DNA from: Candidatus Calditenuaceae archaeon
GTDB lineage: Archaea; Thermoproteota; Nitrososphaeria_A; Caldarchaeales; Calditenuaceae
Assembly (NCBI GenBank): GCA_025058055.1
Contig: JANXEU010000007.1
Span: 379-64,378 of the forward strand
Reading direction: 5' to 3'
Length of the DNA stretch: 64,000 nt
The translations under genes and the position numbers were made by a program. The notes beneath the pieces are model-generated. The model worked only from the letters and a program-made list of their open reading frames with translations. It was not told the DNA's origin and did no database searches. Of this stretch, positions 1 to 30,159 are shown piece by piece (position 1 is the stretch's first letter; every line of letters starts with the position of its first letter).

Positions 1-1149
1 GTCATCCATTCCCCTCTCGTCGAGCCTTATGTGCATCTCGAGGTGCGGCGATGTTCCAGGTACTGTCCTGACTACGTTCTCCACGGCCGTCTGATAGACA
101 TTCACTCCCCTGATCTTCACGACGTAGTCCGTTCTGCCGAGAACGGTGCCTTTGAAGAATGTCCAGGTCCTGCCGCACTCGCAGGGTTCCGAGTGGTGCC
201 ACTCAACCACGTCCTTGGTCCTGTACTTTATGACGGGTTGTGCCAGTTGAGAGAAGCTGGTGACCACGTTCTCTCCGCGCTCTCCCTCTGCGACCACCTC
301 TCCACTCTCTGGATCCATAACGATGCAGTGGTAGTTCGATTCGTTGAGATGTGTGCCGTCCTGTTTGGGACACGCGGGTGCGATGGCACCTACTTCCGCA
401 ACGCCGTACAGTTCGTACGCCTTGACACCGAACGACGACTCTATCTCATCCCTGAGCTTCGGTAGGGCAGTAGGTCCGGGCTCTCCGGCACCGTAGAAGT
501 ATTTCAAGCCGAGGCTCTTTGGATCCACCCCCATCTTTCTCGCGGTCTCAGCGAGATACAACGCGTAAGTCGGCGTCGCAACCAGCACCGTGGGCCTGAG
601 CGACTGCATCTGCCTGATCCTGTCCTCCGTCCCGACACCACCACCCGAGATCACCCTGCCTCCAAGTCTCCTCACTCCCCAGTAACTGGACCAGAACCCG
701 GTGTACATCCCCCACCCGAATGCGAAGTAAAACGAGTCGGACGGCCTGATTCCTACTGCCCAAAAACCGTACGCCCAATCCTCACCGTATTTTATTGTGT
801 CGTAATGAGTAAACGGGATCCTCAGAGGGGTGCCGGTAGTTCCTGAAGTCTGGAAGACGTGCAGAACCTCCGAGGGGTCACAAGCCAGTGCCTCACCGAA
901 CGGAGGGGAGACCGACTGTGCAGCCGTGATCTCCTCTTTCGTTGTGACCGGCACTCGCTTCACGAAGTCCTCCATGGTCTTGACGTCGTCCACCTTGAGC
1001 CCAGCCTTGCGGAACTTCTCGTGGTAGAACCTTGAGTTCTCATATGCGTATTTCAATAACTGTTTAATTCGACGGAGCTGGACCTCTTCCAACCGCTTGC
1101 GAGGCATGCACTCCCAATACGAGCTCCAGAAACGATCGTCACTTCTCAT
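1..1149 (-). CDS. Phenylacetate-CoA ligase family (PaaK / coenzyme F390 synthetase-like) adenylate-forming enzyme, 3'-truncated by window edge
   Basis: Reverse-strand translation from the ATG at 1149-1147 reads an uninterrupted ~383-codon frame to position 1. It includes MRSDDRFWSSYWECMPRKRLEEVQLRRIKQLLKYAYENSRFYHEKFRKAGL, the P-loop LHVFQTSGTTGTPLRIPFTHYD, and ...YGVAEVGAIAPAC... typical of PaaK. The ORF track does not list it because no in-window stop exists. The listed + ORF 31..465 is its antisense shadow. Confidence 0.7.
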   Translation of the reverse strand, partial: MRSDDRFWSSYWECMPRKRLEEVQLRRIKQLLKYAYENSRFYHEKFRKAGLKVDDVKTMEDFVKRVPVTTKEEITAAQSVSPPFGEALACDPSEVLHVFQTSGTTGTPLRIPFTHYDTIKYGEDWAYGFWAVGIRPSDSFYFAFGWGMYTGFWSSYWGVRRLGGRVISGGGVGTEDRIRQMQSLRPTVLVATPTYALYLAETARKMGVDPKSLGLKYFYGAGEPGPTALPKLRDEIESSFGVKAYELYGVAEVGAIAPACPKQDGTHLNESNYHCIVMDPESGEVVAEGERGENVVTSFSQLAQPVIKYRTKDVVEWHHSEPCECGRTWTFFKGTVLGRTDYVVKIRGVNVYQTAVENVVRTVPGTSPHLEMHIRLDERGMDD

Positions 1150-1273
1150 AGTTCACATGAGCAGATCGCGTTTATTAATAAGCATACATATTCAATAACC
1201 GTTTACCTTGTGTGACCTCTGGATGGAAAGGTAGATTACTTAGACTGCATTTAAAACAACGAGGTGCCCTATT

Positions 1274-2734
1274 TTGGGGTTAAGGACCGGCCAGGATTAC
1301 CTTAAGAGCTTAAATGACGGTAGGGAGTTGTATATAGGAAACGAACTCGTGAAGGACCCTGCAACTCATCCTACCCTTCGTTATACTGCTCAGAGCGTGG
1401 CCAGATGTTACGATCTGCAGCTAGCGCGCGCTGACGAGGTGACTTTCGTTGAGAACGGAGAGAGGTTCAGTAACATCTGGCTACCGGTAAGGACTAAGGC
1501 AGACTTCGAGAGGGTGAGAAAAGGAGTAACCCTTTGGCACCGCACGACAGCCGGAATCTTCGGCAGGCTACACGATTACCTCACCATCTGGGTCACTACC
1601 CTTTACATGTTACATGACGTTCTCTCAAAACCCGATCCGAAGTTCGGTAAGAACATGATAGAATATTATTATTACGCGAGATCGAAAGACTTGGCACTTA
1701 CTCACGCGATCAGCATGCCTCAGATTGACAGATCACCTGGTGCTGGACGTAAACAGAACGAAGACCTTCACATCGTTGAGGTAAATGACAGAGGCGTCGT
1801 AATAGAGGGGTGCAGGACGGTCAGTACTTACGCACCCTTTGCGAATGAGTTCATCACTCTGCCTCAGCTACCTGCGAACCCGGACGAAGACCCCGATTAC
1901 GTGATAGGTTTCGCACTGCCGATGAACGCGAAGAACCTAGTATTCCTGTGCAGAGAGACCTACTCGTCTCCTGAAGCACCGTGGGATCACCCCTTGTCTA
2001 CGCTCTACGACGACCTAGACGCTCAAGCAGTCTTTGACAGGGTGTTAATACCTTGGGAGAGGATCTTCATCTATCGAGATCCCAAAATTAACTTTGAGAT
2101 CTATGACCCAATAATGGCTTACGCGACTTGGCAGGCGACTGTCAGGGCGATAGTCAAACTGGAGTTCATAATTGGTCTCGCGGCGAAGTGGGCAGAGATG
2201 TTGGGTATCGACGCCTATCCTAACGTGCAGGAGAGGATCGGATGGCTGATAGAATGGCGAAACGTCTTGAGCGCGGCGGTCGAAGGAGTAGAGCTGACTG
2301 CGCGACCCCACAACGGGTTCCTGATACCTGAGGTCTGGAAGACATGGCCGCTTGTCATGGTGCACGGTACCTACATCTACCCGATGGCGGTGGAGACATT
2401 GAGAGTGCTTACAGGAAGCGGCGTTATCATGAACCCACCGATGTCAGTTTTCAAGGATGAGAAGCTGCGCAAGTATGCTCACAAGTATTTCAGAGCGAAG
2501 GGAGCGTCGGCCTTCGACAGGCTACTCGTCTCGAAGTTCGTGCACGACATTACAGTGGGTTCGCTTGGTGGGAGGCTTCTCCAGTACGAGAGGTACTTCG
2601 CTGCAGATCCGTTCAGGGTCGCGATTGTTCACTACAGGTTCTCCGACAAAAGCCAGTTCAAGCAGCTCGTTGACGACCAGGCCGCATTCATCAAGTCGCT
2701 TATGAAAGAAGCTGGAATAAGCGAGGAAGGATGA
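1274..2734 (+). CDS. hpaB: 4-hydroxyphenylacetate 3-monooxygenase oxygenase component family (HpaB / 4-hydroxybutyryl-CoA dehydratase superfamily) flavin-dependent monooxygenase
   Basis: 486 aa. TGQDYLKSLNDGRELYIGNELVKDPATHP and VLIPWERIFIYRD match the HpaB N-terminal and C-terminal signature regions. The start codon is TTG; there is no in-frame ATG, and a TAG lies 30 nt upstream. Confidence 0.75.
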   Translation: MGLRTGQDYLKSLNDGRELYIGNELVKDPATHPTLRYTAQSVARCYDLQLARADEVTFVENGERFSNIWLPVRTKADFERVRKGVTLWHRTTAGIFGRLHDYLTIWVTTLYMLHDVLSKPDPKFGKNMIEYYYYARSKDLALTHAISMPQIDRSPGAGRKQNEDLHIVEVNDRGVVIEGCRTVSTYAPFANEFITLPQLPANPDEDPDYVIGFALPMNAKNLVFLCRETYSSPEAPWDHPLSTLYDDLDAQAVFDRVLIPWERIFIYRDPKINFEIYDPIMAYATWQATVRAIVKLEFIIGLAAKWAEMLGIDAYPNVQERIGWLIEWRNVLSAAVEGVELTARPHNGFLIPEVWKTWPLVMVHGTYIYPMAVETLRVLTGSGVIMNPPMSVFKDEKLRKYAHKYFRAKGASAFDRLLVSKFVHDITVGSLGGRLLQYERYFAADPFRVAIVHYRFSDKSQFKQLVDDQAAFIKSLMKEAGISEEG

Positions 2735-2738: not shown

Positions 2739-3263
2739 TTGTCGCAAACGACGGTCGCCGAAACTATTAAGGGGTTCATGAGATCTTATCCTCAGGGAGT
2801 GAGCGTTTCCACCACTACTCATAACTCCAAGCCCTGGGGGTTAACGGTAAGCTCGTTCACGTCGATATCACTGGACCCGCCGTTGGTGATGATCTCGATA
2901 GCCAAAGGTTCAAAGAGCCACGAAGTTTTCACGAAGTCCGATAACTTCGCAATAAATATGCTCGCTACGGGACAGGAGAGTATAGCGGAGATATTCGCAG
3001 GCAAAGTGCCTCCGGAGAGGAGGTTTGAACACGTGAGATACAGGTATGGCAAGTCCGGTGCTCCAATTCTCACGGATTGTAGTGCCTACCTAGACTGTAA
3101 AAATTACCGGACATACGACGGTGGTGATCACAGCATCATCCTGGGAGAAGTTATAGACGGTGCCGTGTCAGGACCGTTCTCGCCACTCGTCTACTTCAAC
3201 AGGAGGTACACTACAGTAGCCATCACGTATCTGGAAACAGTCTTTGCACCCGATCCATGGTGA
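2739..3263 (+). CDS. hpaC: Flavin reductase-like domain protein (HpaC-type reductase partner)
   Basis: 174 aa. Flavin_Reduct-like pattern (GLTVSSFTSISLDPPLVMISI ... ILGEV). It starts 4 nt after the hpaB stop, so it is probably translationally coupled. Confidence 0.7.
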   Translation: MSQTTVAETIKGFMRSYPQGVSVSTTTHNSKPWGLTVSSFTSISLDPPLVMISIAKGSKSHEVFTKSDNFAINMLATGQESIAEIFAGKVPPERRFEHVRYRYGKSGAPILTDCSAYLDCKNYRTYDGGDHSIILGEVIDGAVSGPFSPLVYFNRRYTTVAITYLETVFAPDPW

Positions 3264-3322: not shown

Positions 3323-5437
3323 ATGAGCATGCAGAGTTTCTTCAACCCAAAGAGTGTTGCTATAATCGGCGCCTCACGCGACCCTAATAGACCGGGTAAC
3401 ACCATCCTCAAGAACTTGAAGTCAATGGGATACCGGGGTAGAGTGTTTCCGGTTAATCCGAATCTCACGGAGATTGACGGCCTCCAGTGCTATCCCGACG
3501 TCCTGAGCATAGATGAGGACGTGGAGAACGTTGTGATTTTAGTCTCCGCGGACCGGGCCGTGAGGGTAGCCGAGGAGATAGCTGAGAGGCGCAAGAGACG
3601 TAATGACGTTAAGGCAGTGATTTGCATATCTGGGGGATTCAGCGAGCTCAACACGTCCGAGGGCAGGGAAAGGGAGAGGAGGCTTGTAGAGACCCTTAAG
3701 GGATCTGGTGTGAGACTGATGGGACCCAACTGCGTAGGAGTAATTGACTGCTACAGCAGATTCACCACGAACTTCGATTTGGGTGACTATCCGACCGGCG
3801 GAATATCGCTAGTCTCTCAGAGTGGTGCTTTAGCGACTGCTTTCCTCTTCTGGGCACGACCCTTTAACAGAATTGGTCTCAGTAAGCTTGTCTCGATAGG
3901 GAACATGGCTGACGTGGACATGGTCGAGTGTATCGAGTACTTGGGTAATGATCCAACCACCGACGTGATAGGGGTTTACTTGGAGGGATACCGTGATCCG
4001 CGGAAGCTCTTTGAGACGATGAGGAACGTCTCGAGTGAGAAGCCAATAGTGCTGCTGAAGGCAGGTAGGTCTGAAATCGGGAGCAGTGCGGCACTTAGTC
4101 ACACGGCCTCATTAACGGGCTTGGACGCCCTCTACGACGCCGCCTCGAAGCAGTGTGGAGTCATCAGAGTCAAAGACGTGCTGGAATGGTATGAGACCCT
4201 CCACGCTATAGGGAAGCAACCGATTCCACAAGGCAACAGGGTGGCTGTGCTGACACATATCGGAGGCCCCGGAACGCTTACCGTCGATAGAATAGGGATT
4301 GGCCGAGTGCTCAGAATGGCAGCGATATCGGATCGCGGAAAGTCTGCCATAAGATCGATGGTTGCCCCAACAGCCACAGTATGCAGTCCGGATGGGTACA
4401 TCGACTTGACCGCCTCACATACAGAAGAGCTTCACTACAAAGTACTGAAGGTCTTGTTCGAGGAAGAGGGAGTAGACTCGGTCATTCAAGTGGTGGGACA
4501 CAGCATGTTTCTCTCTCAGACCCTCATGGCTGACAGGATCAGCACTGCCTTCGAAGAGGTGGGGAGAGCTAACAGGAAGACGTTTCTGAACGTCGTAGCC
4601 TTTGACGAGTCACTTCCGGAATTCAAGTTAGGACTGGAAAACAGGGGGTTGCCTGAGTTTCCGACACCCGAGATCGCCGTCACGGTCTTAGAGTACATGT
4701 ATTGGTACGCCAATAAGAGAAAGAGATTGGCATCGGCACCGAGACTTACTCCTTTGCCCCCTGCGCGATCAGAACCACCCGTCCTTGGAAGAGAGGTACT
4801 CCTAGAGAGCGAGGCCTATCCCATCCTGAAGAGATACGGTATCTCTGTGGCGGATTACAGGATTGAGACGAACTACGATGAACTCGAGGACGCGGCCGAG
4901 GAGATCGGATTTCCTGTAGTATTGAAGGCCCAGCACCAAAGGTTGATTCATAAAACAGATGCCGGAGCGGTGGCGCTGAACATCAGCGATGCGAGTGAGT
5001 TACGCGAGCGGTTTCATGAGGTCACAGAGAACGTGATCAGGCACATAGGTGAACCCCCATCGTCTTATTTGGTACAGAAGATGATAAAACCGGGTGCCGA
5101 GGTCATAGTCGGTGCTGTGCATGACGACTCCTTCGGACCTGTTATAAGCTTCGGCAGCGGAGGTGTGTTGGTTGAGCTCCTCAAGGACGTGAGCTCGAGA
5201 TTGATCCCTCTAAGTGAAGACGAGGCTGCGGAGATGATTCAAGAGACCTTCGCTTCAAGGTTGTTATCGGGGTTCAGAGGTGAGGAACCGAAGGACATCA
5301 ACGCCTTGGTAGAACTCTTGTTGAAGGTGAGCGAAATGATGCTTAAGGAGGGTTGGATTAAGGAGCTCGATCTCAACCCGGTCAAACCATTGAGAAAGGG
5401 ATACGCGGTGGTCGATGCGAGGATCGTGCTACGCTGA
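3323..5437 (+). CDS. Acyl-CoA synthetase (ADP-forming), fused alpha/beta subunits (CoA-binding + ATP-grasp; ACD family)
   Basis: 704 aa. The N-terminal CoA-binding Rossmann region reads KSVAIIGASRDPNRPGN. A succinyl-CoA-synthetase-like ligase-CoA domain and a C-terminal ATP-grasp follow (FPVVLKAQ..HKTDAGAVALN). Confidence 0.8.
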   Translation: MSMQSFFNPKSVAIIGASRDPNRPGNTILKNLKSMGYRGRVFPVNPNLTEIDGLQCYPDVLSIDEDVENVVILVSADRAVRVAEEIAERRKRRNDVKAVICISGGFSELNTSEGRERERRLVETLKGSGVRLMGPNCVGVIDCYSRFTTNFDLGDYPTGGISLVSQSGALATAFLFWARPFNRIGLSKLVSIGNMADVDMVECIEYLGNDPTTDVIGVYLEGYRDPRKLFETMRNVSSEKPIVLLKAGRSEIGSSAALSHTASLTGLDALYDAASKQCGVIRVKDVLEWYETLHAIGKQPIPQGNRVAVLTHIGGPGTLTVDRIGIGRVLRMAAISDRGKSAIRSMVAPTATVCSPDGYIDLTASHTEELHYKVLKVLFEEEGVDSVIQVVGHSMFLSQTLMADRISTAFEEVGRANRKTFLNVVAFDESLPEFKLGLENRGLPEFPTPEIAVTVLEYMYWYANKRKRLASAPRLTPLPPARSEPPVLGREVLLESEAYPILKRYGISVADYRIETNYDELEDAAEEIGFPVVLKAQHQRLIHKTDAGAVALNISDASELRERFHEVTENVIRHIGEPPSSYLVQKMIKPGAEVIVGAVHDDSFGPVISFGSGGVLVELLKDVSSRLIPLSEDEAAEMIQETFASRLLSGFRGEEPKDINALVELLLKVSEMMLKEGWIKELDLNPVKPLRKGYAVVDARIVLR

Positions 5438-7057
5438 GACCGCGTGCGGAGGTTGTTCCCTGAGCTTGAACCTCTGAATCTTTCCCGTTGGAGTCTTCGG
5501 CAGGTCGCTTGTGAAGATCACCCACGCAGGTACCTTGTAGCCAACACCTAACCTCATCATGACGTGACGCTTTATCTCCTCTGCGAGTTCGTCGCTGGCT
5601 GAATATCCGGCCTTTAAGACTACGTGTGCCTTGGGTCTGCCTAATCCGTCAGGAGTGTATGCTTGAACAACCGCACATTCAACTACCGCGTGATGTGAGA
5701 GGATGGCCGACTCAACCTCAACCGGCGAGACCCATACTCCACCAGACTTGATGAGGTCGTCTGCTCGCCCCATGTGAACGAAATATCCCTCCTCGTCGGC
5801 CACGTATAGGTCACCGGTGTAGAACCATTCGCCGAGGAAGTGCTCTCTGGTCTTCTCGTATCGCCTCCAGTACATCGCTGCGACGCTTCCACCCTTGACG
5901 AGCATCCTTCCAGGCTCGCCGTAATTGACCTCTTTCATCTGCTCATCGACAAGCTTAACCTCATATCCTGGAACAACGACTCCTGATGTCCCAGGCCTTA
6001 TTTTATCAGGTCTATTCGATACGAAGATATGGCACATCTCTGTCGTCCCGATTCCATCCAAGATGTCCTTCCCAAATGTCTGTTTCCACTTGTGATAAAT
6101 CGGCGCGGGAAGAGCCTCGCCGGCGCTTACGCAGTACCTGACGCTGTCGAGATTGAAGCTCGTAGCACCTCTGGAATCGACGTGAGCCAAGGCTCTACTG
6201 TAAAAGACGGGAACGGAGAAGAAGAGCGTCACACGGAACCTTTCGATCGATTTGAGTACGAACTCTGGATCAGGTGGACCCGACATGAGAACCGTTGAAG
6301 CCCCGAAGTATAGTGGCGCCCAGACCGAGTTTCCTAAGCCGTACGCGAAGAAGATCTTGCTAGTCGAGAAGTTGACATCGTTACGGCTCTCCTTCAGGAC
6401 GTGTCTGTAATAGGACTCGCATGAGTAGAGCGGATCGTGTTGGTAATGAATGACACCCTTCGGCGGCCCCGTAGTCCCAGAACTGTACTGCCAGTAACAG
6501 AAGTCGTCCTTGTGGAGCCTCTCTGGTTGCAGGTTTCCGCTCGCGTTCTTGATGAGTTCCTCGTAACTCAACGCCTTACCGATTCCCGACCCACCCACCG
6601 CTATTACCTTCCTGAGACGTCCGAGCCTGTCTGTTGCGTCTCGCACTTTCTCGAGTAGGTTGGCGTGAACTACCAAAGCCTTAGCGCGGCAGTCTCCTAA
6701 GACGAACTCGTAGAACTGTTTAGACTCAAGCGTCGATAAGAGGACCGGCTGAGCTCCCACCCTTATCGCGCCCAGCAGCACCTCGACGTACTCAATCGAG
6801 TCCGGCAGTATTATCGCGACCCTGTCCTCCATCTCAACTCCAATGTCAAGCAGTACGTTCCCGGCCCTGTTGATCCGCTCGTGCAGTTGAGCGTAAGTTA
6901 CGGACCTCCCGCTCTCGGCCTGTATATACGCAAGACGATCTCCAAGCCCCGATGTCACGTGCCTGTCCACGAGGTACTCGGTCAGGTTGAAGCTTTCTGG
7001 GACTTGAAAGTCCACCGGCTCACCGGTCAAATGTACCATCTTATCTCTCACTCGCAT
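5429..7057 (-). CDS. AMP-forming aromatic acid-CoA ligase (benzoate/4-hydroxybenzoate-CoA ligase family)
   Basis: 542 aa. The YSSGTTGPPKGVIH P-loop, WFYTGDLY motif and terminal PKTPTGKIQR lysine motif are present. An alternative ATG start lies 18 nt downstream (MVHLTGE). Confidence 0.75.
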   Translation of the reverse strand: MRVRDKMVHLTGEPVDFQVPESFNLTEYLVDRHVTSGLGDRLAYIQAESGRSVTYAQLHERINRAGNVLLDIGVEMEDRVAIILPDSIEYVEVLLGAIRVGAQPVLLSTLESKQFYEFVLGDCRAKALVVHANLLEKVRDATDRLGRLRKVIAVGGSGIGKALSYEELIKNASGNLQPERLHKDDFCYWQYSSGTTGPPKGVIHYQHDPLYSCESYYRHVLKESRNDVNFSTSKIFFAYGLGNSVWAPLYFGASTVLMSGPPDPEFVLKSIERFRVTLFFSVPVFYSRALAHVDSRGATSFNLDSVRYCVSAGEALPAPIYHKWKQTFGKDILDGIGTTEMCHIFVSNRPDKIRPGTSGVVVPGYEVKLVDEQMKEVNYGEPGRMLVKGGSVAAMYWRRYEKTREHFLGEWFYTGDLYVADEEGYFVHMGRADDLIKSGGVWVSPVEVESAILSHHAVVECAVVQAYTPDGLGRPKAHVVLKAGYSASDELAEEIKRHVMMRLGVGYKVPAWVIFTSDLPKTPTGKIQRFKLREQPPHAVSA

Positions 7058-7285
7058 ATGCTGAATATATCCGTATTTCGCAAGTTTCGTCGAGCCACGA
7101 GGCTCCCAAGGCTACCGCTCGGTCATCAAGCGACAAGTAGATATACGATCGGCTGTAATAATGGAAGGACTAATGACGAGGTTTGGTCTGGTATTGCCGA
7201 ACATAAATTTTGAAGAGGAGGGCCGGTTCTTTGATCTCGGGTCACTCGCGTTCTATCACCCCTACAGAATTGAGGTGCGTTTGTG

Positions 7286-23069: not shown

Positions 23070-23148
23070 GCAACCCACCAGATTGTGTTCTAAAATAAAA
23101 ATGCTTTGCAGGAAAGCGTATATGGTCGATGATCAGACCAGAGATCGT

Positions 23149-23856
23149 TTACTTACTCCGCTGCAACTGGAAGTACCTGTATTGTTGACGGGCCTCCCTG
23201 AGCGTCTTGCCGGACCTCACGGACTCGATGATCATCCTCTCCGCCTCTTCGATCTCCTTCGCGTCCCTGAGGACCTCACTCGCCCTCTCTTTGGGAACGC
23301 GGAGAAGCCCTGTGTCGTCGCCAACGATGATGTCGCCCGGCATGATCAGGACTCCGCCTGCCTGTACAGCCACGTTTATCCCATCTATCTGGAGCCGGTC
23401 CTTTCCGGTCCTAGGAATGGTACCTCTCGCGAAGATAGGATATCTGAATCTTAGTATGTTATCGTAATCTCTGAAGACGCCGTCTATCACGGTCCCCGCG
23501 ATCCCCAATTTCATCGCGGTAAAGGTCAGAATGTCTCCCCAACAGGTGTAGCTGGTCACGCCGCCGTTGTCAATCACGATAACGTCACCGGGTTGAGCGA
23601 GATCGAAAAGGTAGTCTCCGATGTCCTCCTTAGTTCCCTGCTCGGCTGGTGAGAGAGGGACGTACCTGACGGTTATGGCAGGGCCTGCGATCCTGACGCC
23701 TTGTACCATCGGACGTATGCCCTCTATTACTCCGCTGATCCTAGTGCGCTCCAATGAGTCAGATATGTTTGGTGTCGAAAGTTCCTTGAAAGCATCGACG
23801 ACGTCCCTTGAAGGTCTGCTCACCTCCTTAACCACAACGGGGTTATAATCACCCAT
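23149..23856 (-). CDS. RraA-family / HMG-CHA aldolase-like protein (paralog 2)
   Basis: MGDYNPVVVKEVSRPSRDVVDAFKEL...GDVIVIDNGG...GIAGTVIDGVFRD...GDIIVGDDTGLLRVP plus a C-terminal extension. The ORF track starts at GTG 23865. Confidence 0.7.
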   Translation of the reverse strand: MGDYNPVVVKEVSRPSRDVVDAFKELSTPNISDSLERTRISGVIEGIRPMVQGVRIAGPAITVRYVPLSPAEQGTKEDIGDYLFDLAQPGDVIVIDNGGVTSYTCWGDILTFTAMKLGIAGTVIDGVFRDYDNILRFRYPIFARGTIPRTGKDRLQIDGINVAVQAGGVLIMPGDIIVGDDTGLLRVPKERASEVLRDAKEIEEAERMIIESVRSGKTLREARQQYRYFQLQRSK

Positions 23857-23962
23857 CTCGTCCACACTCTCAAAGTCAGATTATTAAAAATGCTTGCTGC
23901 TGTTGTCGCAGAGTTAAAAGTTCTTGTCTGAGGGATAAATAGAACCTTGGCGATCCGAACTC

Positions 23963-24637
23963 ATGGTCTCGAGAAAGGTCGTGGACGAATTCGCGAAAAT
24001 TCCCACCTCAAACGTCTCCGACGCCCTCGACAGGTTCAGGATAAAGGGTGGGCTCGAGGACATTTCACCGATCGTGGACAACGTGAGAATCGCAGGTACG
24101 GCGTTCACGGTGAGGTTCGTTCCAGCCAATCAGGTAGAGTTGAAGCCCTGGGTCACGTACATAGACAAGGCCCAGCCTGGCGACGTGGTAGTGATCGATA
24201 ACGGCGGTAGGAAATATTGCACCGTTTGGGGAGGTCTTCTGTCCGCGAGAGCAAAGGACATGGGACTGAGGGGGACGGTGATCGACGGAGTCTGCAGGGA
24301 CATCGACGTTATCAGGGCGATTCGGTACCCGGTCTTCAGCAGAGGTCGGTTCATGATGACCGGTAAGGACAGGGTGCAGCTCGCGGGCCTCAACGAGCCG
24401 ATAAACATCGCAAACGTCCTCATCAAACCTGGTGACGTGATCGTCGCGGACGACAGCGGCGTCGTGGTGGTACCGCAAGAGAAGGCTGAAGAGGTGCTGG
24501 AGGCGGCGCTGGAGATCTACGAGAAAGAATCGAAGATCCTAGAGGAGGTGAAGCGGGGCGTACCGTTATCGGAGGCTAGGGCGAAATACGGTTACGGGGA
24601 ATTGCAGCGCCCCAAAGGCTTAACGCAATCGAAATAG
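23963..24637 (+). CDS. RraA-family / HMG-CHA aldolase-like protein (paralog 3)
   Basis: MVSRKVVDEFAKIPTSNVSDALDRF...GDVVVIDNGG...GLRGTVIDGVCRD...GDVIVADDSGVVVVP. It is divergent from paralog 2 and immediately upstream of the third Mo-hydroxylase. Confidence 0.7.
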   Translation: MVSRKVVDEFAKIPTSNVSDALDRFRIKGGLEDISPIVDNVRIAGTAFTVRFVPANQVELKPWVTYIDKAQPGDVVVIDNGGRKYCTVWGGLLSARAKDMGLRGTVIDGVCRDIDVIRAIRYPVFSRGRFMMTGKDRVQLAGLNEPINIANVLIKPGDVIVADDSGVVVVPQEKAEEVLEAALEIYEKESKILEEVKRGVPLSEARAKYGYGELQRPKGLTQSK

Positions 24638-24664: not shown

Positions 24665-27106
24665 TTGGAGTCCTTACCACCCGAAACGGTTCATAATTTA
24701 TCACGCAAAATAACAACAAGATGGATAGGCAGCCCAGTTAAAAGAAAGGAAGATCTCCGGTTCATAACAGGGAAGGGTCTATTCGTGGACGATTTCAGAT
24801 TCGATAACTGCCTCTATGTCGCATTCGTCAGAGGTAAGGTTGCTCATGCGAAGATAAGACACATAGAGACAGATAAAGCGTCCAGAGTGCGTGGGGTTGT
24901 GAAGGTTCTCACCGGCGAAGAGGTCGCCGATCTCGTCAAACCTTGGCCCCATCTAATTCCAACACCACCTTATTATGGAATCGCTGTTGATAAGATAAGA
25001 TATCAAGGCGAACCTGTGGCTATGGTAATAGCAGAAAGCAAATACGCTGCATGGGACGCGGCAGAGGCGATTGAAGTCTATTGCGAAGGGCTGCGGCCCT
25101 TGGTGACGATCGATGAGGCTTTATCACTCGATGCTCCCCTGATTCACGAGGGGTTCCCACGAAACGTTGCGTGGGAGAAGAAGTTCATTTACGGAGACGT
25201 TGATGGCGACTTCTCAAGGGCCGATAGGGTGGCAAGAGGAAGATACTATTATCACAGGTTCATATCCGCACCTCTGGAACCAACCGCGCTCGCCGCTGTC
25301 TACGATAGACATTCCGGACACCTGACCATCTACGACCAACACCAGCAGGCTCCGATGTATCACGCCAGATACTCCAGGGTGTTAGGCATACCGTCGAACA
25401 GAATTCGCATCAGAGTACCTGACCTAGGAGGAGGATTCGGAAACAAGCAGAGCGTCTACCCATACAGCGCACTAATCGGACTGGCAGCCTTGATAACGGG
25501 AAGACCAGTCAAATTCGTAGCTTCACGATCAGAGGACTTTCAAGCATTGATGCACTCCCCTGATAGATTGGCAAAAGTCGAAGCGGCCTACAAGCTCAAC
25601 GGTGAGGTAATTTCGGTGAGGATGAAGATCTATGACAACTTCGGCGCCTATCTCAGACATCCTGAACCCCATAACGTGACAAGGGCGTTCCCATCGATTG
25701 TCGGTCCTTACAGAATAAAGTCGATCGAGATTGACGCAACAGGGGTGTTCACCAACACCTGCCCGACCGGTCCCAACAGGGGGTACGGACAACAACACGC
25801 TAGCTTCTGCCTTGAGCGCATCATCGACAAGGTGGCTGAGGAGCTCGGATTGGATCCCGTTGAGCTCCGGACGGTCAATTTGATTAGGCGAAACCAGATG
25901 CCCTACGAGACACCCGTTGGATCAGTCTACGACGACGGCGATTACGCAGCAGCGTTGAGTTACGCACTAGAGCTAGCGGAATACGAACAACTCAAGCGAG
26001 AGCGGGAGAAGATGAGAGGAAACGGTGACTTGATGGGGTTGGGCGTTGCCACGATAGTGGAGGGAGGTGCGACCGCCTTCGGGTTCGCTAGGTTGTGGGG
26101 CGGGGATCCGGCCCATGTAGCGGGATATGCCTCCATGGCCGAGTCAGCGTCCGTTAGAGTTCACCCCGACGGGTCAATAACTGTCGCCATGGGAACAGTG
26201 CCACAGGGTCAAGGCCATGAAACCTCTGCTGCACAGATAGTCGCTGATGTTCTGGGCGTCACTCCCGACGACGTGACGGTGATTCCAGGCTTCGATAGCG
26301 ACACGCATCCCTACAGCGCCGCGGGATCAGGCACCTATGCAAGCAGGTTCTCCCAAATAGCAGTAGGCGCGCTGGTCGGAGCCTCACTGCGAATCCGAGA
26401 GAAGGTGTTACACATCGCCGCTCACAAGTTAGAGGCTAACCCTGCAGACTTGGAGATGAGGGACGGCATGATCTACATAAGGGGAAATCAGGAGCGGTTC
26501 ACGACCTTCAGAGAGATAGCTCGAATCGCGCACACCAGATTGGCCGATCTACCTCCGAACACAGAGGCCGGTCTGGATGCGTATTACACCTACCACTTCC
26601 CCTACAGCAAATCGGTCGGTGACGACCTGAGAGGGAACCTCTGTGGGTCATACGCTTTCTTAGCAGGCGTCGCGGCGGTGGTGATCGATAAGGAGACTGG
26701 CGCGGTAGATCTCAGGAGGTTGGTGGTAGTGCACGACTCCGGCAGGGCGTTGAACCCCATGATCCTCGAAGGACAACTGCACGGGGCCGTTGTCAACGGC
26801 ATCGGGGGTGCTCTTCTTGAGGGGTTCGAATATGATCAAGAAGGCAACCTTCTGACTTCAACTTTCGCGGATTATCTGCCTATATCGGCGACCGAGGTAC
26901 CCGAGCTCAGGTTCGGCCACATGGAGACCTCATCTCCTTTCACCCCGTTAGGCGCGAAAGGCAGCGGTGAGGGAGGAACCATATTGGTGCCGGTGCTGAT
27001 TGCCAATGCAATCAACGACGCCCTCAAACCATTAGGAGTCGAGATAACCACGTCGAGACTGACGCCATTCAACGTTTGGCGTTTCATGACCGGAAAAGGC
27101 CTCTGA
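24665..27106 (+). CDS. Molybdopterin-dependent hydroxylase large subunit (XDH/CoxL family), third paralog
   Basis: 813 aa with loop TGPNRGYGQQHASFCLERIID. It lies 27 nt downstream of the RraA-like gene and upstream of two hydrolases. Confidence 0.8.
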   Translation: MESLPPETVHNLSRKITTRWIGSPVKRKEDLRFITGKGLFVDDFRFDNCLYVAFVRGKVAHAKIRHIETDKASRVRGVVKVLTGEEVADLVKPWPHLIPTPPYYGIAVDKIRYQGEPVAMVIAESKYAAWDAAEAIEVYCEGLRPLVTIDEALSLDAPLIHEGFPRNVAWEKKFIYGDVDGDFSRADRVARGRYYYHRFISAPLEPTALAAVYDRHSGHLTIYDQHQQAPMYHARYSRVLGIPSNRIRIRVPDLGGGFGNKQSVYPYSALIGLAALITGRPVKFVASRSEDFQALMHSPDRLAKVEAAYKLNGEVISVRMKIYDNFGAYLRHPEPHNVTRAFPSIVGPYRIKSIEIDATGVFTNTCPTGPNRGYGQQHASFCLERIIDKVAEELGLDPVELRTVNLIRRNQMPYETPVGSVYDDGDYAAALSYALELAEYEQLKREREKMRGNGDLMGLGVATIVEGGATAFGFARLWGGDPAHVAGYASMAESASVRVHPDGSITVAMGTVPQGQGHETSAAQIVADVLGVTPDDVTVIPGFDSDTHPYSAAGSGTYASRFSQIAVGALVGASLRIREKVLHIAAHKLEANPADLEMRDGMIYIRGNQERFTTFREIARIAHTRLADLPPNTEAGLDAYYTYHFPYSKSVGDDLRGNLCGSYAFLAGVAAVVIDKETGAVDLRRLVVVHDSGRALNPMILEGQLHGAVVNGIGGALLEGFEYDQEGNLLTSTFADYLPISATEVPELRFGHMETSSPFTPLGAKGSGEGGTILVPVLIANAINDALKPLGVEITTSRLTPFNVWRFMTGKGL

Positions 27107-27183: not shown

Positions 27184-28119
27184 TTGAACCCAGAATTCAC
27201 TGGCAACGTGAAATTCACCCACCGCATACAGCCTGAGAGAAAGCTGAGGGAGTATGCTTCTCTCCTCGAAGGCGTAGTTGATCTGCACGTACACACTGCG
27301 CCGGACGTACTGACGAGGGCGGTCGACGATTTAGAGTACATCAATTCTCTATCAGAGGTCGGCTACGTTGCCTATCTAGCAAAGAACCACTTCGTAGAGA
27401 CCGCGAGCAGGTCCTACATTTTATCTAAATTCAACGAAAAGGTAAGAGTGTTAGGAGGAGTAGTTCTCAATGAATCTGTCGGAGGGCTGAACCCCTCGGC
27501 TGTCGATAAGGCGTTGTCGATGGGTGCTGCCGAGGTTTGGATGCCTACTTTGGATGCTGAGAACCACATTAGGACGTTCGGAGCTGCACAGCTTCCCACA
27601 ACTCAACGAGTGAGAACGCTCAGTTCGTACAGGGCTCGATCCGCGTGCATAACAGTACTCAACACCGATGGTGAGCTGAAGCCGGAAGTCCAAGAGATCT
27701 TGGAGATGATAGCTGAGGCGGACGCGATTTTGGGCACGGGCCACCTATCTCTGAGGGAGGTCTACAAGGTCGTCGAGGGTGCTAGGAAGGCGGGGGTCAA
27801 GAAGATCTTGGTAACTCACCCGCACTTCAAGGCAACGCGTTTCTACGCCGACGACCAGATCAAATTGGCTGACATGGGAGCGGTCATGGAGCACTGCGCA
27901 GTGGCCGGATACGATCCGAAAGAACTCGCCGAGGACATCAGGAGAATCGGTGTCTCTAGGTGCATCGTCTCGAGTGACGCAGGTCAACCTCACAAGGGAC
28001 ACCCCGTCGATGTTCTCCTCAAGATGATCGAGGAACTGAAGGGCCAAGGAATATCAGACGCTGACATCGAGAGGCTGGTGGTCAAGAACCCGGCCAAGCT
28101 GGTAGAGAACTTCCTCTAG
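27184..28119 (+). CDS. Amidohydrolase-superfamily TIM-barrel metal-dependent hydrolase
   Basis: HxH (VVDLHVHTAPD), later His (ILGTGH, VTHPHF) and a terminal Asp (VSSDAGQPH) in amidohydrolase order. The ORF track starts at TTG 27184, GTG 27205 is also possible, and no ATG lies near the N-terminus. Confidence 0.5.
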   Translation: MNPEFTGNVKFTHRIQPERKLREYASLLEGVVDLHVHTAPDVLTRAVDDLEYINSLSEVGYVAYLAKNHFVETASRSYILSKFNEKVRVLGGVVLNESVGGLNPSAVDKALSMGAAEVWMPTLDAENHIRTFGAAQLPTTQRVRTLSSYRARSACITVLNTDGELKPEVQEILEMIAEADAILGTGHLSLREVYKVVEGARKAGVKKILVTHPHFKATRFYADDQIKLADMGAVMEHCAVAGYDPKELAEDIRRIGVSRCIVSSDAGQPHKGHPVDVLLKMIEELKGQGISDADIERLVVKNPAKLVENFL

Positions 28120-28442
28120 GCCATGAGTCACTCTTCACTCCCCGTCGAGCTGCTCGGTACGATCGAAGAACGCAGGGTTGACGGAATGTCCCGCAATAAG
28201 GTATCGCCCCGAGCGGTCGCGTACGCTGCGTCTCAGGACAACATGAGCTCTCAAACCGTTAAGGGACCTCTTGCCTCGCTTCGGGCAAGATCGCTGTGTG
28301 AACACTCCGGATTCAGGTACCTCTCGGGGCGGGTAACGCAAAGCGAACTGTTGGACACCCCGACCTCAAGGACGATGAGGTCAGAACTCTTTAGACCAAG
28401 GTGTCGTGTGGCACAGCCGGAGGGTGGAGGCAGGAGACAGGG

Positions 28443-29336
28443 ATGACGCTGAACAACGTGAAAATCAACGACGTGCACGTTCACGTGAACCCTTTCTCTA
28501 TGCTCCATAAACCGGCCCTCGAGTTCTTTGCCATGAATCAGGACTTTCGGCAGAACTGGAACCGAATAGAGAGGGACCCCTCATACGTGGTAAAAAGAAT
28601 GGACGAGGAGGGCGTTCAGAGAATCGTTCTCATTAACTACGTGGCTAAGGAGGTTATGGGGTACGACCTCTCGGTTAACGAATACGTCTTTCGATATTGT
28701 AGGGGTTACAGAGATAGATTGATCCCCTTCGGGGGAGTAGAAATTGGGTTAGACCATACCGAGTTCGCTCGGAGGATCGAGGAGGATTACTCGAAGTTCG
28801 AACTCGCAGGGTTAAAGCTACACCCTGTACATCAGCTTGTCTATGCGAACCAATACTTGCCGGAATACGGAGAAGCGCGCGTACGCAACTTAGAGACCCT
28901 CTATCAGTTCTGCAGCGACCACTCTGTCCCCCTCACCGTCCACACAGGATCCTCCATGTTCCCCGGTGCGCGGATCAAGTACGGAGACCCTCTCTACCTC
29001 GATGACGTGCTTGTCGACTTCCCAGAGCTCACCCTGATTATGGCGCATGGCGGTCGGCCCATCTGGATGGAGAAGGCGTTCTTTCTCATGCGCAGGCACA
29101 GGAACCTCTACTTAGACATCTCAGGCATTCCTCCGAACCGGCTCCTCGAGTACTTTCCTAGGATCACGGAGATCGCCGATCGGGTGATCTTCGGAAGCGA
29201 TTGGCCCAGCCCAGGCGTCAAGGGTATGAGAGCCAACGCTCTCGAGATACTGAAGCTACCTATCCCTGAGGACGTGAAGGAGAGGATACTGGGGCTGAAC
29301 TTCGAGCACCTCTTCAGGTCGCTTCGCGTAATATGA
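28443..29336 (+). CDS. Amidohydrolase-2 family hydrolase/hydratase (LigJ/LigI/ACMSD-like)
   Basis: MTLNNVKINDVHVHV..., ...HTGSS..., MAHGGRP..., GSDWP reproduce the PF04909 metal-ligand pattern. The ORF track's start 28401 lies inside the upstream gene region; ATG 28443 is preferred. Confidence 0.7.
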   Translation: MTLNNVKINDVHVHVNPFSMLHKPALEFFAMNQDFRQNWNRIERDPSYVVKRMDEEGVQRIVLINYVAKEVMGYDLSVNEYVFRYCRGYRDRLIPFGGVEIGLDHTEFARRIEEDYSKFELAGLKLHPVHQLVYANQYLPEYGEARVRNLETLYQFCSDHSVPLTVHTGSSMFPGARIKYGDPLYLDDVLVDFPELTLIMAHGGRPIWMEKAFFLMRRHRNLYLDISGIPPNRLLEYFPRITEIADRVIFGSDWPSPGVKGMRANALEILKLPIPEDVKERILGLNFEHLFRSLRVI

Positions 29337-29391
29337 CTATCAAAAGGTCTTTGCACCTTATATCTACCCGACAACCAGGTAGATCGGCGAC

Positions 29392-30159
29392 ATGCGGTGC
29401 GGTGTCTGCGACAAGGAAGAGGTACTGCCTTTCAGATGCGCTTACTGCGGACTGTATCACTGTGCTGAGCACAGGCTCCCCGAAGCTCACGACTGCAAAT
29501 ACCTCCACCTAGCCAAATCACCTGTCGAGATCGAGAAGGTCGAATCGACGATTCGCGAGAGGAGACCTATACGGGTGGGCATCAGGCTCAGCAGATCCGA
29601 GCTGATTAACTTAGTAATCGGCTCAGCACTCGTGAGCGCCGTCGGGTTCACGCTTCTCAGATTCGGAAGAATAGACACGGCGCACTTGGCGCTCGCAATC
29701 GGCGCGTTCACGGCCTCCTTTCTCGTTCACGAGCTAGCACACAAGTTCGAAGCTACAAGGCAAGGATACACCGCAGCCTTTAAGCTCTCGACCATAGGAG
29801 TCCTCCTCACACTCATATCGGTATTCTCTCCCTTGAAAGTCATCGCGCCTGGCGCGGTCAACGTTCACGGCCTCCCGACCTCAAAGGCACTCGCTCGAAT
29901 CGCAGCAGTTGGTCCATTAACCAACATCGTGATAGCGTTGGTGTGCTACATTGTCTCACTCGTCACACTGACGATCTCTCCAGCTTCTCAATTGGGCAGG
30001 GTCTCCTTCGTTGTTGGTTCTCTTAACTCCTTCCTGGCCCTTTTCAACATGCTTCCGTTCGGTCCTCTAGACGGGATGAAGGTGCTGAATTACAGCAAGA
30101 AGGCTTGGCTCGCGCTGTTCATACCGGCCGCACTCCTCACCCTCTACGGTTACCTTTGA
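29392..30159 (+). CDS. AN1-type zinc finger fused to site-2-protease/M50-like intramembrane metalloprotease
   Basis: The N-terminal CGVCDKEEVLPFRCAYCGLYHCAEHRLPEAHDC is an AN1 C6H2 pattern. Multiple TM helices carry HELAHKF (HExxH) and NMLPFGPLDG (the S2P LDG motif). Confidence 0.7.
   Translation: MRCGVCDKEEVLPFRCAYCGLYHCAEHRLPEAHDCKYLHLAKSPVEIEKVESTIRERRPIRVGIRLSRSELINLVIGSALVSAVGFTLLRFGRIDTAHLALAIGAFTASFLVHELAHKFEATRQGYTAAFKLSTIGVLLTLISVFSPLKVIAPGAVNVHGLPTSKALARIAAVGPLTNIVIALVCYIVSLVTLTISPASQLGRVSFVVGSLNSFLALFNMLPFGPLDGMKVLNYSKKAWLALFIPAALLTLYGYL

Follow-up and report, generated by a model that had tools for sequence, protein, structure and literature searches.

Does an archaeal gene cluster built around LigB- and LigA-like proteins encode the breakdown of an aromatic acid and, if so, how far does it follow the 4,5-cleavage route of bacteria? 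The question is raised by a stretch of 64,000 nt from a Candidatus Calditenuaceae archaeon (contig JANXEU010000007.1 of assembly GCA_025058055.1, positions 379-64,378; hereafter 'the window'), in which the cluster occupies positions 1-29400. An earlier interpretation, made from the letters and the open reading frames (ORFs) alone and called here the sequence-only reading, had proposed a complete upper and lower pathway for a hydroxyaromatic acid, and every gene family that it named was found in its place when the ORFs were listed and scanned against Pfam and NCBIfam profiles, 60 window ORFs being passed through Pfam. Around the dioxygenase genes the cluster holds four CoA-activating enzymes, three large subunits of the xanthine dehydrogenase (XDH)/CoxL molybdenum (Mo) enzyme type (MoL1, MoL2 and MoL3) and three RraA-like proteins (RraA1, RraA2 and RraA3). 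We conclude that this is a real gene cluster, conserved among relatives, for the O2-dependent opening of an aromatic acid ring; as judged from its encoded proteins it resembles the bacterial protocatechuate/gallate 4,5-cleavage route, with several steps apparently carried out by unrelated enzymes.

The closest homologues of LigB are those of Candidatus Calditenuis fumarioli (87% identity), Calditenuaceae archaeon pSL4 (86%) and Candidatus Caldarchaeum sp. (83-84%), and the remainder of the window encodes archaeal housekeeping proteins (thermosome, TATA-binding protein, topoisomerase VI B, replication factor C; Pfam scan). The host, which the sequence-only reading had called a '(cren)archaeon', is thus an archaeon, but a crenarchaeon only in a loose sense, the genus Calditenuis belonging to the order Caldarchaeales of the phylum Nitrososphaerota, formerly 'Aigarchaeota' (NCBI taxonomy).

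The ligBA unit and its conserved neighbourhood

At the heart of the cluster lies the gene for the catalytic dioxygenase subunit, LigB (20244..21062, + strand; PF02900 score 97.9 against a cut-off of 26.3; the ORF may start at 20226), followed after 19 nt by that for a LigA-type small subunit (21082..21384, +; PF07746, 40.6 against 25.3) and after a further 6 nt by that for an acyl-CoA thioesterase of the 4HBT/YbgC type (21391..21798, +; 4HBT_2 and 4HBT domains). The best solved relative of LigB is the gallate dioxygenase DesB (E 1e-16, ~26% identity), followed by MhpB and then by LigB of known structure; residues H18, H65 and E242 align with the iron ligands of DesB (H12, H59, E239), and H127 and H197 with its catalytic histidines (H124, H192). 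Four of these five residues (H18, H65, H197 and E242) are invariant in all 16 homologues, the most distant of which is 24% identical, and 15 of them also keep H127. With iron ligands and catalytic histidines kept, the protein appears to be a catalytic class III extradiol dioxygenase, as had been proposed, and because these residues are conserved a non-catalytic protein of the MEMO1/AmmeMemoRadiSam type is ruled out. The order ligB before ligA is likewise as first described, and the small partner, which adjoins ligB, passes the threshold of its family. It has weak matches to the LigA-like C-terminal domain of gallate dioxygenase (its sole NCBIfam match, and a near-best PDB match at E ~0.02). 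A precursor of a ribosomally synthesized and post-translationally modified peptide was also considered for this gene and rejected, such LigA-domain precursors being weak among its PDB matches (E 0.1-0.8) and the gene lying directly 3' of a catalytic ligB.

The unit probably has a promoter of its own. A TATA-box-like archaeal element, TTTATATATAAA (20204..20215, +), lies upstream of ligB, is the sole copy in the window (0 expected by chance) and ends 29 nt from the ATG at 20244, which is the start position common to all LigB homologues; this element suggests that the ligB-ligA-thioesterase operon is probably transcribed with a very short leader, and that the ATG at 20226 is probably not used as the ligB start. 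A scan for bacterial promoters and terminators returned chance-level results, its bacterial models not being applicable to archaea.

The neighbourhood was compared over 20 kb per relative in two Calditenuis genomes (L002, which is Ca. Calditenuis fumarioli, and L004), a Nitrososphaerota archaeon (L005/L006) and a Caldiarchaeum subterraneum-like contig (L010). The order in Ca. C. fumarioli is PaaK-like ligase (-), HpaB hydroxylase, flavin reductase, ADP-forming synthetase, benzoate-CoA-ligase-family enzyme (BCL, -), LigB, LigA, 4HBT thioesterase, Liv-type binding protein (-), RraA2 (-), RraA3, MoL3, DUF6282 protein, an extra AMP-binding ligase and Amidohydro_2 protein, and L004 matches it up to a partial RraA2 at the end of L004, with no 4HBT gene detected there by tblastn. 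The Nitrososphaerota archaeon (LigB 55% identical) has LigB, LigA and HpaB contiguous, flanked on one side by LivGF, LivH, RraA1, LivM, an isochorismatase-family protein and MoL2, and on the other by the binding protein, an acetyl-CoA synthetase (ACS)-like enzyme and an extended short-chain dehydrogenase/reductase (SDR). The Caldiarchaeum contig (LigB 59%) packs HpaB, a MoL2-type subunit, LigA, LigB, the binding protein, LivHMGF, DUF6282, the SDR, Amidohydro_2, BCL, 4HBT and an RraA1-type protein into 16 kb. HpaB, LigBA, a Mo subunit of the MoL2/MoL3 type, the Liv importer, the extended SDR and the LigK-like RraA1 are therefore linked in all three lineages, and DUF6282, Amidohydro_2, BCL and 4HBT in two (Calditenuis and Caldiarchaeum), none of these last four being seen within 10 kb in L005/L006. 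Among the Calditenuis genomes it is only the window, in a 13.2-kb block, that shows RraA1 and the SDR; the compared stretches of L002 and L004 contain neither, and of these two L002 alone has RraA2 and RraA3 in full. Since the clustering recurs in three divergent Caldarchaeales lineages it is not due to chance, and linkage that persists despite rearranged order mostly favours a functional cluster over a dispersed set of genes. Nor is the arrangement an assembly artefact, since an independent assembly (a 25,162-bp Logan contig, SRR15826900) has the identical gene order from MoL2 to RraA3 with protein identities of 99.6-100%.

The 13.2-kb block (7058-20225) lies between the BCL and LigB genes and carries those for MoL1, MoL2, the isochorismatase-family protein, LivH, RraA1, LivM, LivG, LivF, the ACS-like synthetase and the SDR. 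The other two Calditenuis genomes in which the junction could be examined lack it at this place; BCL abuts LigB in Ca. C. fumarioli and in two more relatives, L003 and L004. Its proteins are 65-82% identical to those of L005/L006, whereas LigB, LigA, HpaB and the binding protein reach only 52-58%, a pattern which suggests lateral exchange or a separate history for the block, or else a rearrangement; no direct repeats of 8-14 nt were found flanking it. At the other end of the cluster, the stretch to the left of the PaaK-like gene in Ca. C. fumarioli (L002 positions 63-2345) encodes a C-terminal fragment of a thiamine pyrophosphate enzyme, a second Amidohydro_2 protein (336 aa) and an EamA-type permease, and by these upstream genes the cluster probably extends past the left edge of the window.

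Proteins encoded around the dioxygenase

The three RraA-like proteins are not equivalent. RraA1 (13633..14343, -) is a LigK/ProA-like aldolase for CHA (4-carboxy-4-hydroxy-2-oxoadipate) and HMG (4-hydroxy-4-methyl-2-oxoglutarate) of the aldolase-oxaloacetate decarboxylase kind; it passes NF006731 (202 against 179), misses TIGR02798 (ligK_PcmE; 169 against a cut-off of 304) and is 37% identical (E 3e-41) to the Pseudomonas putida HMG/CHA aldolase (PDB 3NOJ). The NCBI annotation of the source metagenome-assembled genome (MAG) also names it a CHA aldolase/oxaloacetate decarboxylase, and lists the DUF6282 protein as DUF6282. In the P. putida enzyme Arg123, an essential residue, stabilizes the enolate, the metal is bound by Asp124 and Glu199, and the pocket is lined by Asn71, His75, Thr145, Lys147 and Arg195 (Mazurkewich et al., 2016; PMC5065237). 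Eight of 11 active-site residues checked are identical in RraA1 (N71, H75, R123, D124, G144, K147, R195 and E199), the changes being T145 to Ser, R40 to Lys and D102 to Gly. RraA2 (23149..23865, -) and its paralogue RraA3 (23963..24637, +) are Pfam members that belong to the uncharacterized subfamily of PDB 3K4I (E 5e-47 and 3e-50); they are 52% identical to each other and 40-43% identical to 3K4I, and keep only the metal and enolate residues R123, D124 and E199, with a different pocket. The sequence-only reading, which likened all three to LigK/ProA/GalC by their fold, was thus right for RraA1, by profile, structure match and active site, but not for the other two; Arg123 and the acidic ligands to which it had pointed are kept in all three. 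Identification as true RraA (short, ~160 aa) or MenG-type proteins was rejected for the set, their NF006875 scores being 75, 51 and 51 against a cut-off of 136 and their lengths 224-238 aa.

Two amidohydrolase-fold proteins had been compared with LigI, the PDC hydrolase, and LigJ, the oxalomesaconate hydratase, which Pfam places together in Amidohydro_2. Both are there, one of them by predicted fold only, but neither has specific similarity to LigI or LigJ. The DUF6282 protein (27184..28119, +; PF19799, E 2.5e-68), a triose-phosphate-isomerase (TIM) barrel of the amidohydrolase superfamily, has no Pfam amidohydrolase family match at E <= 0.001 and no solved relative by sequence. Its AlphaFold2 model, built from an alignment of 31 sequences, has a predicted local distance difference test (pLDDT) score of 93.6, and the top Foldseek matches of the model in the PDB are all amidohydrolase barrels with template modelling (TM) scores of 0.45-0.6 (gamma-resorcylate decarboxylase, NagA, PTER, LigI and isoaspartyl dipeptidase); H37, H187, H212 and D265 are invariant in the alignment. 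The predicted model thus makes it an amidohydrolase-fold barrel without specific affinity to LigI. In all four lineages in which DUF6282 was seen it lies no more than ~5 kb from an RraA-like gene (loci including those of the window and L002, L010 and L015), and this proximity suggests that the two act in consecutive steps. The second protein (28401..29336, +) is a metal-dependent hydrolase, hydratase or decarboxylase of the Amidohydro_2 family (PF04909, 116 against 26.4), with orthologues in L002 (70%) and L010 (57%); its best solved relative is the uncharacterized BB4693 (3IRS, E 1e-16), 3CJP being its only other PDB match (phmmer, E <= 0.01), and its single-sequence AlphaFold model (pLDDT 33) is unusable for fold ranking. 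Between the two genes the window has a gap of 280 bp (28120-28400) with an ORF lacking any hit (28123-28446), where L002 has a gene for an AMP-binding ligase of 531 aa (17875-19470); the ligase gene has probably been deleted from the window. Elsewhere, a DUF6282 gene of a deltaproteobacterial MAG (L012, 6614-9563) stands between genes for nicotinate phosphoribosyltransferase and an isochorismatase-family (nicotinamidase-like) protein, neighbours which hint that some DUF6282 members act in pyridine-nucleotide salvage.

Upstream in the cluster, a flavin-dependent phenol ortho-hydroxylase oxygenase component of the HpaB family (1274..2734, +; HpaB_N and HpaB domains) is followed after 4 nt by the gene for an HpaC-like flavin reductase (2739..3263, +; Flavin_Reduct E 5e-44; best NCBIfam match of the HpaC type, below cut-off). 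The best PDB match of HpaB is the Thermus thermophilus enzyme (TtHpaB; E 2e-65), with the aligned phenol-binding residues Arg100, Tyr104 and His142 kept; the score for 4-hydroxyphenylacetate 3-monooxygenase (TIGR02309) is 291 against a cut-off of 480, and the HpaB family domains and the adjacent reductase are both present. Assignment as a 4-hydroxybutyryl-CoA dehydratase (AbfD) was rejected, given the poorer match to 1U8V (E 1e-16 as against 2e-65), the presence of three cysteines only and the adjacent flavin reductase. The reductase gene is followed after 59 nt by that for an ADP-forming (NDP-forming) acyl-CoA synthetase with fused alpha and beta parts (3323..5437, +; CoA_binding_2, Succ_CoA_lig and ATP-grasp_5 domains), which archaeal ADP-forming acetate/hydroxyacid-CoA ligase models match below cut-off. 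BCL (5429..7057, -) is an AMP-forming ligase of the benzoate-CoA ligase family (TIGR02262, 540.6 against 375), with orthologues in L002, L004 and L003 (68-71%) and L010 (58%). At the left edge of the window, which cuts off its C-terminal part, stands a PaaK-like aryl-acid CoA ligase (1..1152, -; open frame of 384 aa; best NCBIfam PaaK models 256 and 231 bits, below cut-off) that is 83% identical to the protein at the same position in Ca. C. fumarioli; a + strand ORF at 31-465 was dismissed as a spurious antisense of this gene in the six-frame view. The fourth CoA-activating enzyme is an ACS-like AMP-forming acyl-CoA synthetase (16905..18857, +; ACAS_N and AMP-binding domains; 632 against 657 for acetate/propionate-CoA ligase models), and a second ACS-like AMP-forming acyl-CoA synthetase, of 642 aa, is encoded outside the cluster (35928-37856, -). 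The thioesterase that follows ligBA has orthologues in L002 (71%) and L010 (43%).

The Mo large subunits, all Pfam members, are MoL1 of the XDH/CoxL family (7283..9535, +; form-II-like loop PYRGAGR), the CoxL/quinoline-oxidoreductase-like MoL2 (9569..11992, +; loop PNRGYGC) and the CoxL-like MoL3 (24665..27106, +; loop PNRGYGQ), the last being 50% identical to MoL2. The closest NCBIfam model to MoL1 is the alpha subunit of glyceraldehyde dehydrogenase (666 against a cut-off of 790), and no orthologue of it was seen, tblastn in the other loci matching only MoL2/MoL3-type genes at 32-37% identity. PDB matches of MoL2 are CoxL (1e-157), quinoline 2-oxidoreductase (4e-130) and the alpha subunit of 4-hydroxybenzoyl-CoA reductase (3e-78). 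The MoL2 type is the one kept beside LigAB, with orthologues in L005 (80%) and L010 (65%), and MoL3 has an orthologue (76%) at the same position in L002. In true CO dehydrogenase (CoxL form I) the loop is AYRCSFR, with the copper-binding Cys. Aerobic CO dehydrogenase was rejected for the window proteins, which have Gly at the position of that Cys in all three cases, score 383-554 against 991 in TIGR02416 and are not accompanied by CoxM or CoxS genes. A comparable neighbourhood was seen in three of five bacterial loci of the LigB subfamily (L007, L008 and L013; LigB ~31-32% identity), where an XDH-family Mo large subunit lies 1-4 kb from LigAB, accompanied in L013 by FAD and FeS subunits and a meta-cleavage-type alpha/beta hydrolase and standing in L008 beside an FAA_hydrolase gene; near LigAB in the other two loci no XDH-family large subunit was seen. 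Elsewhere in the window (37914-40730, -, and 59833-60438, -) are genes for a MoaB/MogA-like Mo cofactor protein, CofD (F420), a nitroreductase-family protein and two MobA-like nucleotidyltransferases, cofactor genes that may supply dinucleotide molybdopterin for CoxL-type enzymes.

A LigC-type dehydrogenase had been described as not evident, and none of the 60 window ORFs matches the Gfo/Idh/MocA family to which LigC belongs (Pfam). The extended SDR of epimerase/dehydratase type (19062..20078, +; Epimerase Pfam, below every NCBIfam cut-off; orthologues in L005, 75%, and L010, 62%), which had been named as the only nearby dehydrogenase candidate, is indeed a candidate and a conserved member of the cluster, but the lone Mo subunits are candidates too. 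An amidase-like cysteine hydrolase of the isochorismatase family (11951..12631, -; E 2e-40) has weak similarity to RutB and biuret amidohydrolase (64 bits against a cut-off of 378 for RutB) and an orthologue (71%) at the same position in L005/L006. The transporter comprises two Liv-type ABC permeases (12647..13621 and 14382..15275, both -; BPD_transp_2), two ATPases (15272-15997 and 15994-16737, both -; ABC_tran and BCA_ABC_TP_C) and a Liv-type (Peripla_BP_6) substrate-binding protein with an N-terminal membrane anchor (21846..23078, -; Pfam). The sequence-only reading had remarked on an aldolase gene inside the transporter operon, and RraA1 does lie between the two permease genes, embedded alike in L005/L006. 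PDB matches of the binding protein are amino-acid binders (~1e-21) and Rhodopseudomonas-type binders (4EVS and 4F06, ~1e-15), values that do not tell a specificity for amino acids from one for aromatic acids.

A proposed route and its rivals

How might these proteins work together? On the strength of family membership and gene linkage, on which all the following steps are based, we lean, with somewhat better than even confidence, towards a general model in which this conserved Caldarchaeales chromosomal cluster serves to break down a hydroxy-aromatic carboxylic acid aerobically; an acid of the 4-hydroxybenzoate/protocatechuate/gallate type is the most likely substrate, and any exact choice among such acids deserves much less confidence than the model itself. 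The acid would be imported by the Liv-type ABC system and would be handled in part as a CoA thioester, through the benzoate-type ligase, the PaaK-like ligase, the ADP-forming synthetase of the hpaBC operon and the 4HBT thioesterase of the ligBA operon; the presence of the last two in these operons suggests shuttling between free acid and CoA thioester, and hydroxylation might, speculatively, take place on the thioester. The two-component HpaB/flavin-reductase hydroxylase would then make a catechol, presumably a carboxy-substituted one derived from a 4-hydroxy-aromatic acid, because of the gallate dioxygenase kinship, the benzoate-CoA-type ligase and the CHA-aldolase pocket of RraA1. The LigB/LigA Fe(II) extradiol dioxygenase would open the ring. 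As LigC was not found in the window, the ring-fission semialdehyde must be oxidized by a non-orthologous enzyme, for which the conserved extended SDR and the conserved lone CoxL-type Mo subunit are the candidates. Lactone hydrolysis and hydration, which are the tasks of LigI and LigJ in bacteria, would be taken on by DUF6282 and the Amidohydro_2 protein, and RraA1 would split the resulting 4-hydroxy-2-oxo acid into pyruvate and oxaloacetate. RraA2, RraA3, MoL1, MoL3, the isochorismatase-like amidase and the ACS-like synthetase would be accessory. As far as sequence comparison can tell, the family content fits the logic of protocatechuate/gallate 4,5-cleavage better than that of any alternative.

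A number of observations weigh against this model. The claim of a complete upper and lower pathway is not borne out, as LigC-type and LigU/GalD/GalB-type genes are missing and the hydrolases lack specific similarity to LigI and LigJ: the oxalomesaconate (OMA) isomerases of the LigU/GalD type (PrpF family) were not found in the window by Pfam any more than LigC was, the DUF6282 model matches many amidohydrolases equally and LigI only at the generic fold level (TM ~0.5), and neither LigI nor LigJ is among the PDB matches of the Amidohydro_2 protein at E <= 0.01 (phmmer). Only RraA1 and the benzoate-type CoA ligase reach a curated NCBIfam equivalog or subfamily cut-off. LigB stays below all its equivalog cut-offs (66-86 bits against 286-837), among them those for gallate dioxygenase (NF009904, 76 against 412) and for the alpha/beta form of protocatechuate 4,5-dioxygenase (NF009912, 66 against 837; NF009903, 71 against 317); it is 24-33% identical to anything outside the Caldarchaeales and belongs to a rare subfamily, 20 of 1.84 billion cluster representatives reaching E <= 1e-30, so that assignment of a substrate by homology is weak. 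The residue of HpaB aligned with Ser197 of TtHpaB is Gln; we take Ser197 to be the carboxylate-binding position, in which case Gln leaves the hydroxylase substrate unclear. Arylacetates, not benzoates, are what the PaaK-like ligase and the ADP-forming synthetase point to, and the whole 64 kb has no FAD (FAD_binding_5) or FeS (Fer2_2) partner gene for the Mo subunits. An RraA1-type gene, a second RraA gene and DUF6282 stand side by side in L015 (Aigarchaeota archaeon GCA_033581295), where LigAB was not seen within 10 kb, so the clustering is common but not universal. Lastly, cultivated Calditenuis is described as a branched-chain amino-acid specialist, its Liv systems being read as amino-acid importers (PMC12979851).

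A bolder version of the route, which we consider unlikely as a whole, would be a hybrid CoA-dependent aerobic pathway of a kind described from no organism so far. BCL would activate an acid of the benzoate type, a lone CoxL-family Mo enzyme and/or HpaB would hydroxylate it as the CoA thioester, the thioesterase would release it and LigAB would cleave it, with DUF6282 as a new hydratase/lactonase family replacing LigI/LigJ and the Mo enzyme or the SDR replacing LigC; the Mo step might, by analogy, work like furoyl-CoA dehydrogenase or a reversed 4-hydroxybenzoyl-CoA reductase. Were it true, the pairing of the LigB subfamily with the XDH family (three of three archaeal lineages, three of five bacterial loci) would mark an unrecognized Mo-dependent meta-cleavage step.

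Other substrates can be imagined for the same genes. For the salvage of tyrosine and phenylalanine, arylacetyl-CoA would yield 4-hydroxyphenylacetate and ATP through the ADP-forming synthetase, or the acid would be activated by the PaaK-like ligase; HpaBC would make homoprotocatechuate, and LigAB would cleave it, as do the LigB-superfamily enzymes HpaD/HpcB in Escherichia coli. The closest characterized relatives of HpaB are indeed 4-hydroxyphenylacetate 3-hydroxylases, hpaBC has the PaaK-like ligase and the ADP-forming synthetase as its immediate neighbours, amino acids are what Calditenuis lives on (PMC12979851), and one bacterial LigB relative (L008) stands beside a gene of the FAA_hydrolase (HpaG) family. 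LigB, however, scores only 29 bits with the HpaD model (TIGR02298), the HpaE, HpaF, HpaG, HpaH and HpaI families were not found in the window (Pfam), and HpaB differs at the position aligned with Ser197; moreover, the PaaK-like and ADP-forming enzymes are missing from the L005 and L010 clusters, whereas L005/L006 and L010 do have the LigK-like aldolase and L010 also the benzoate-type ligase. We accordingly regard this salvage route as doubtful, to much the same degree as the hybrid scheme. An N-heteroaromatic acid of nicotinate, picolinate or quinoline type would give the three Mo large subunits a use, since they could hydroxylate it, with HpaB adding a second hydroxyl, Amidohydro_2 decarboxylating, LigAB cleaving and the amidase removing the amide nitrogen. 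Quinoline 2-oxidoreductase and 6-hydroxypseudooxynicotine dehydrogenase are among the closest solved relatives of those subunits, the bacterial Mo-LigB neighbourhoods and the L012 arrangement of DUF6282 described above fit it as well, and the isochorismatase-family hydrolase is conserved in L005/L006. That hydrolase is, on the other hand, missing from the L010 and L002 clusters, and the RraA aldolase and the CoA ligases would have no role in maleamate-type pathways; to our knowledge the enzymes known to cleave the ring of pyridine diols (NicX type) lie outside the LigB family. From the nic maleamate pathway (NicAB, NicC, NicX, NicD, NicF, NicE) the window shows no more than a Mo large subunit of generic type and a protein of the isochorismatase family, the NicC, NicD, NicE and NicX families not being found by Pfam, and we find this the least probable of the explanations weighed here.

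The genes might also form no single pathway but a mosaic of separate modules: an importer of amino acids or organic acids with acyl-CoA synthetases, an oxidative sugar-acid or aldehyde module (SDR, lactonase-type amidohydrolases, an RraA-type aldolase/decarboxylase and a Mo aldehyde oxidoreductase) and a small HpaB-LigAB unit. The absence of the 7058-20225 block from this position in other Calditenuis and its higher identity to L005 would follow naturally, as would the RraA-RraA-DUF6282 group without LigAB in L015 and the resemblance of MoL1 to archaeal glyceraldehyde dehydrogenase; uronate catabolism employs an RraA-family enzyme (PMC8563752), and Calditenuis has many Liv paralogues (PMC12979851). 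Yet in three divergent lineages these families keep their linkage to LigAB-HpaB although their order has changed, RraA1 has the specific pocket of a CHA/HMG aldolase, a thioesterase gene sits in the ligBA operon, and neither a sugar-acid dehydratase nor a sugar transporter was found in the window (Pfam), which together make a mosaic distinctly improbable, only a little less so than the N-heteroaromatic route.

Known systems, significance and other genes of the window

Set beside the protocatechuate 4,5 pathway (ligAB-ligC-ligI-ligU-ligJ-ligK of Sphingobium sp. SYK-6; pmd/fld/pro of Comamonas and Pseudomonas), the cluster shares the two-subunit LigB/LigA with identical iron-binding and catalytic residues, enzymes of the amidohydrolase superfamily and a class II aldolase of the RraA fold with the active site of a CHA/HMG aldolase. 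It differs in lacking LigC and LigU in the window, in hydrolases that are not detectably orthologues of LigI and LigJ, in the order ligB before ligA and in its thermophilic archaeal host, and it adds a hydroxylase of the HpaBC rather than the PobA type, CoA ligases, a thioesterase, lone CoxL-type Mo subunits and the extended SDR. The gallate pathway (DesB of SYK-6; GalA-GalD of P. putida KT2440) has in common with it the DesB kinship of LigB and LigA and a final aldolase of the RraA fold, but in the window LigB and LigA are separate genes, not fused, and the GalB and GalD families are missing. With the 4-hydroxyphenylacetate (hpa/hpc) systems of E. coli W and T. thermophilus HB8 it shares an HpaB/HpaC hydroxylase feeding a LigB-superfamily dioxygenase; the HpaD equivalog and HpaE, F, G, H and I are absent from the window, and the lower-pathway families differ. 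Routes of CoA-dependent aerobic hydroxylation include that from salicylyl-CoA through gentisyl-CoA to gentisate in Streptomyces sp. WA46, the furoyl-CoA dehydrogenase HmfABC and 4-hydroxybenzoyl-CoA reductase. Their shared logic is an aryl-CoA ligase, a hydroxylase, a thioesterase and a ring-cleavage dioxygenase, and XDH-family Mo enzymes that act on aryl-CoA thioesters exist; in contrast to these, MoL2 resembles CoxL and quinoline oxidoreductase more than it does 4-hydroxybenzoyl-CoA reductase.

The sequence-only reading knew of no LigAB/LigK-type pathway described in a (cren)archaeon, a claim of novelty that is weakened by Beam et al. (2015; ISME J, PMC4681859), who reported a LigA/LigB operon in Ca. 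Calditenuis aerorheumensis, reportedly highly transcribed in situ (~80 C) and with its substrate left unidentified. They added that it is 'also found in other Aigarchaeota', the account taking two sentences without analysis of residues, synteny or the lower pathway (PMC4681859); the existence of the operon was therefore already known. Theirs is almost certainly an orthologue, within the same genus, of the operon described here, and the pSL4 single-cell contig AWOE01000048 has BCL-LigB-LigA at 68-86% identity to the window. What the window adds to their operon is the 13-kb block with MoL1, MoL2, the isochorismatase-family gene, LivHMGF, RraA1, the ACS-like gene and the SDR. In a full-text literature search no biochemical or detailed genomic account of an archaeal LigAB/LigK-type route was found beyond that report: Hua et al. 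(2018) mention neither aromatics nor LigA/LigB, a 2023 paper on Caldarchaeales MAGs gave no match to LigB, dioxygenase or protocatechuate and a sole match to 'aromatic' in the name of an aminotransferase, and the 2026 paper on the cultivation of Calditenuis never mentions aromatics (PMC12979851). A paper on protocatechuate in Bathyarchaeota was considered as a precedent and set aside, its pathway being a different one based on carboxymuconolactone decarboxylase. What appears to be new here is the anatomy of the cluster, with its core of six families in three Caldarchaeales lineages and four more in two, together with the LigK-like active site, the tie between RraA and DUF6282 as an amidohydrolase, the lack of LigC and LigU, the handling of CoA thioesters and the recurrent partnership with a Mo subunit.

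Aerobic cleavage of aromatic rings is well characterized in bacteria. Among archaea we know of scattered cases only, namely catechol 2,3-dioxygenase in Sulfolobus and gentisate routes in haloarchaea. The cluster could stand for a thermostable meta-cleavage pathway in which three or four enzymes have been replaced by non-orthologous ones, and it offers a candidate function for DUF6282 and for some archaeal 'orphan CoxL' genes. It would also qualify the picture of a branched-chain amino-acid specialist, as at least one Liv-type importer of Calditenuis lies in an aromatic-catabolic cluster and may import aromatic acids. Because a cultivated Calditenuis species exists (PMC12979851), the hypothesis is directly testable.

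Beyond the cluster the window holds a few other genes of note. A full-length homologue of the 56-kDa selenium-binding protein SBP56 (49728-51119, -; E 4e-185), a family which includes methanethiol oxidases, is adjoined by ORFs without Pfam match, and a 638-aa fusion (46626-48542, +) joins an S-adenosylmethionine-dependent methyltransferase (residues ~65-175) to an ATP-grasp domain of the D-Ala-D-Ala-ligase type (426-614). A second cluster, unrelated to the first and combining transport with an oxidase (42280-46246, -), encodes a binding protein of the NMT1/THI5 type, an FAD_binding_4 oxidase, an ABC ATPase and a permease; by it stands an HTH_10 regulator (41432-42115).

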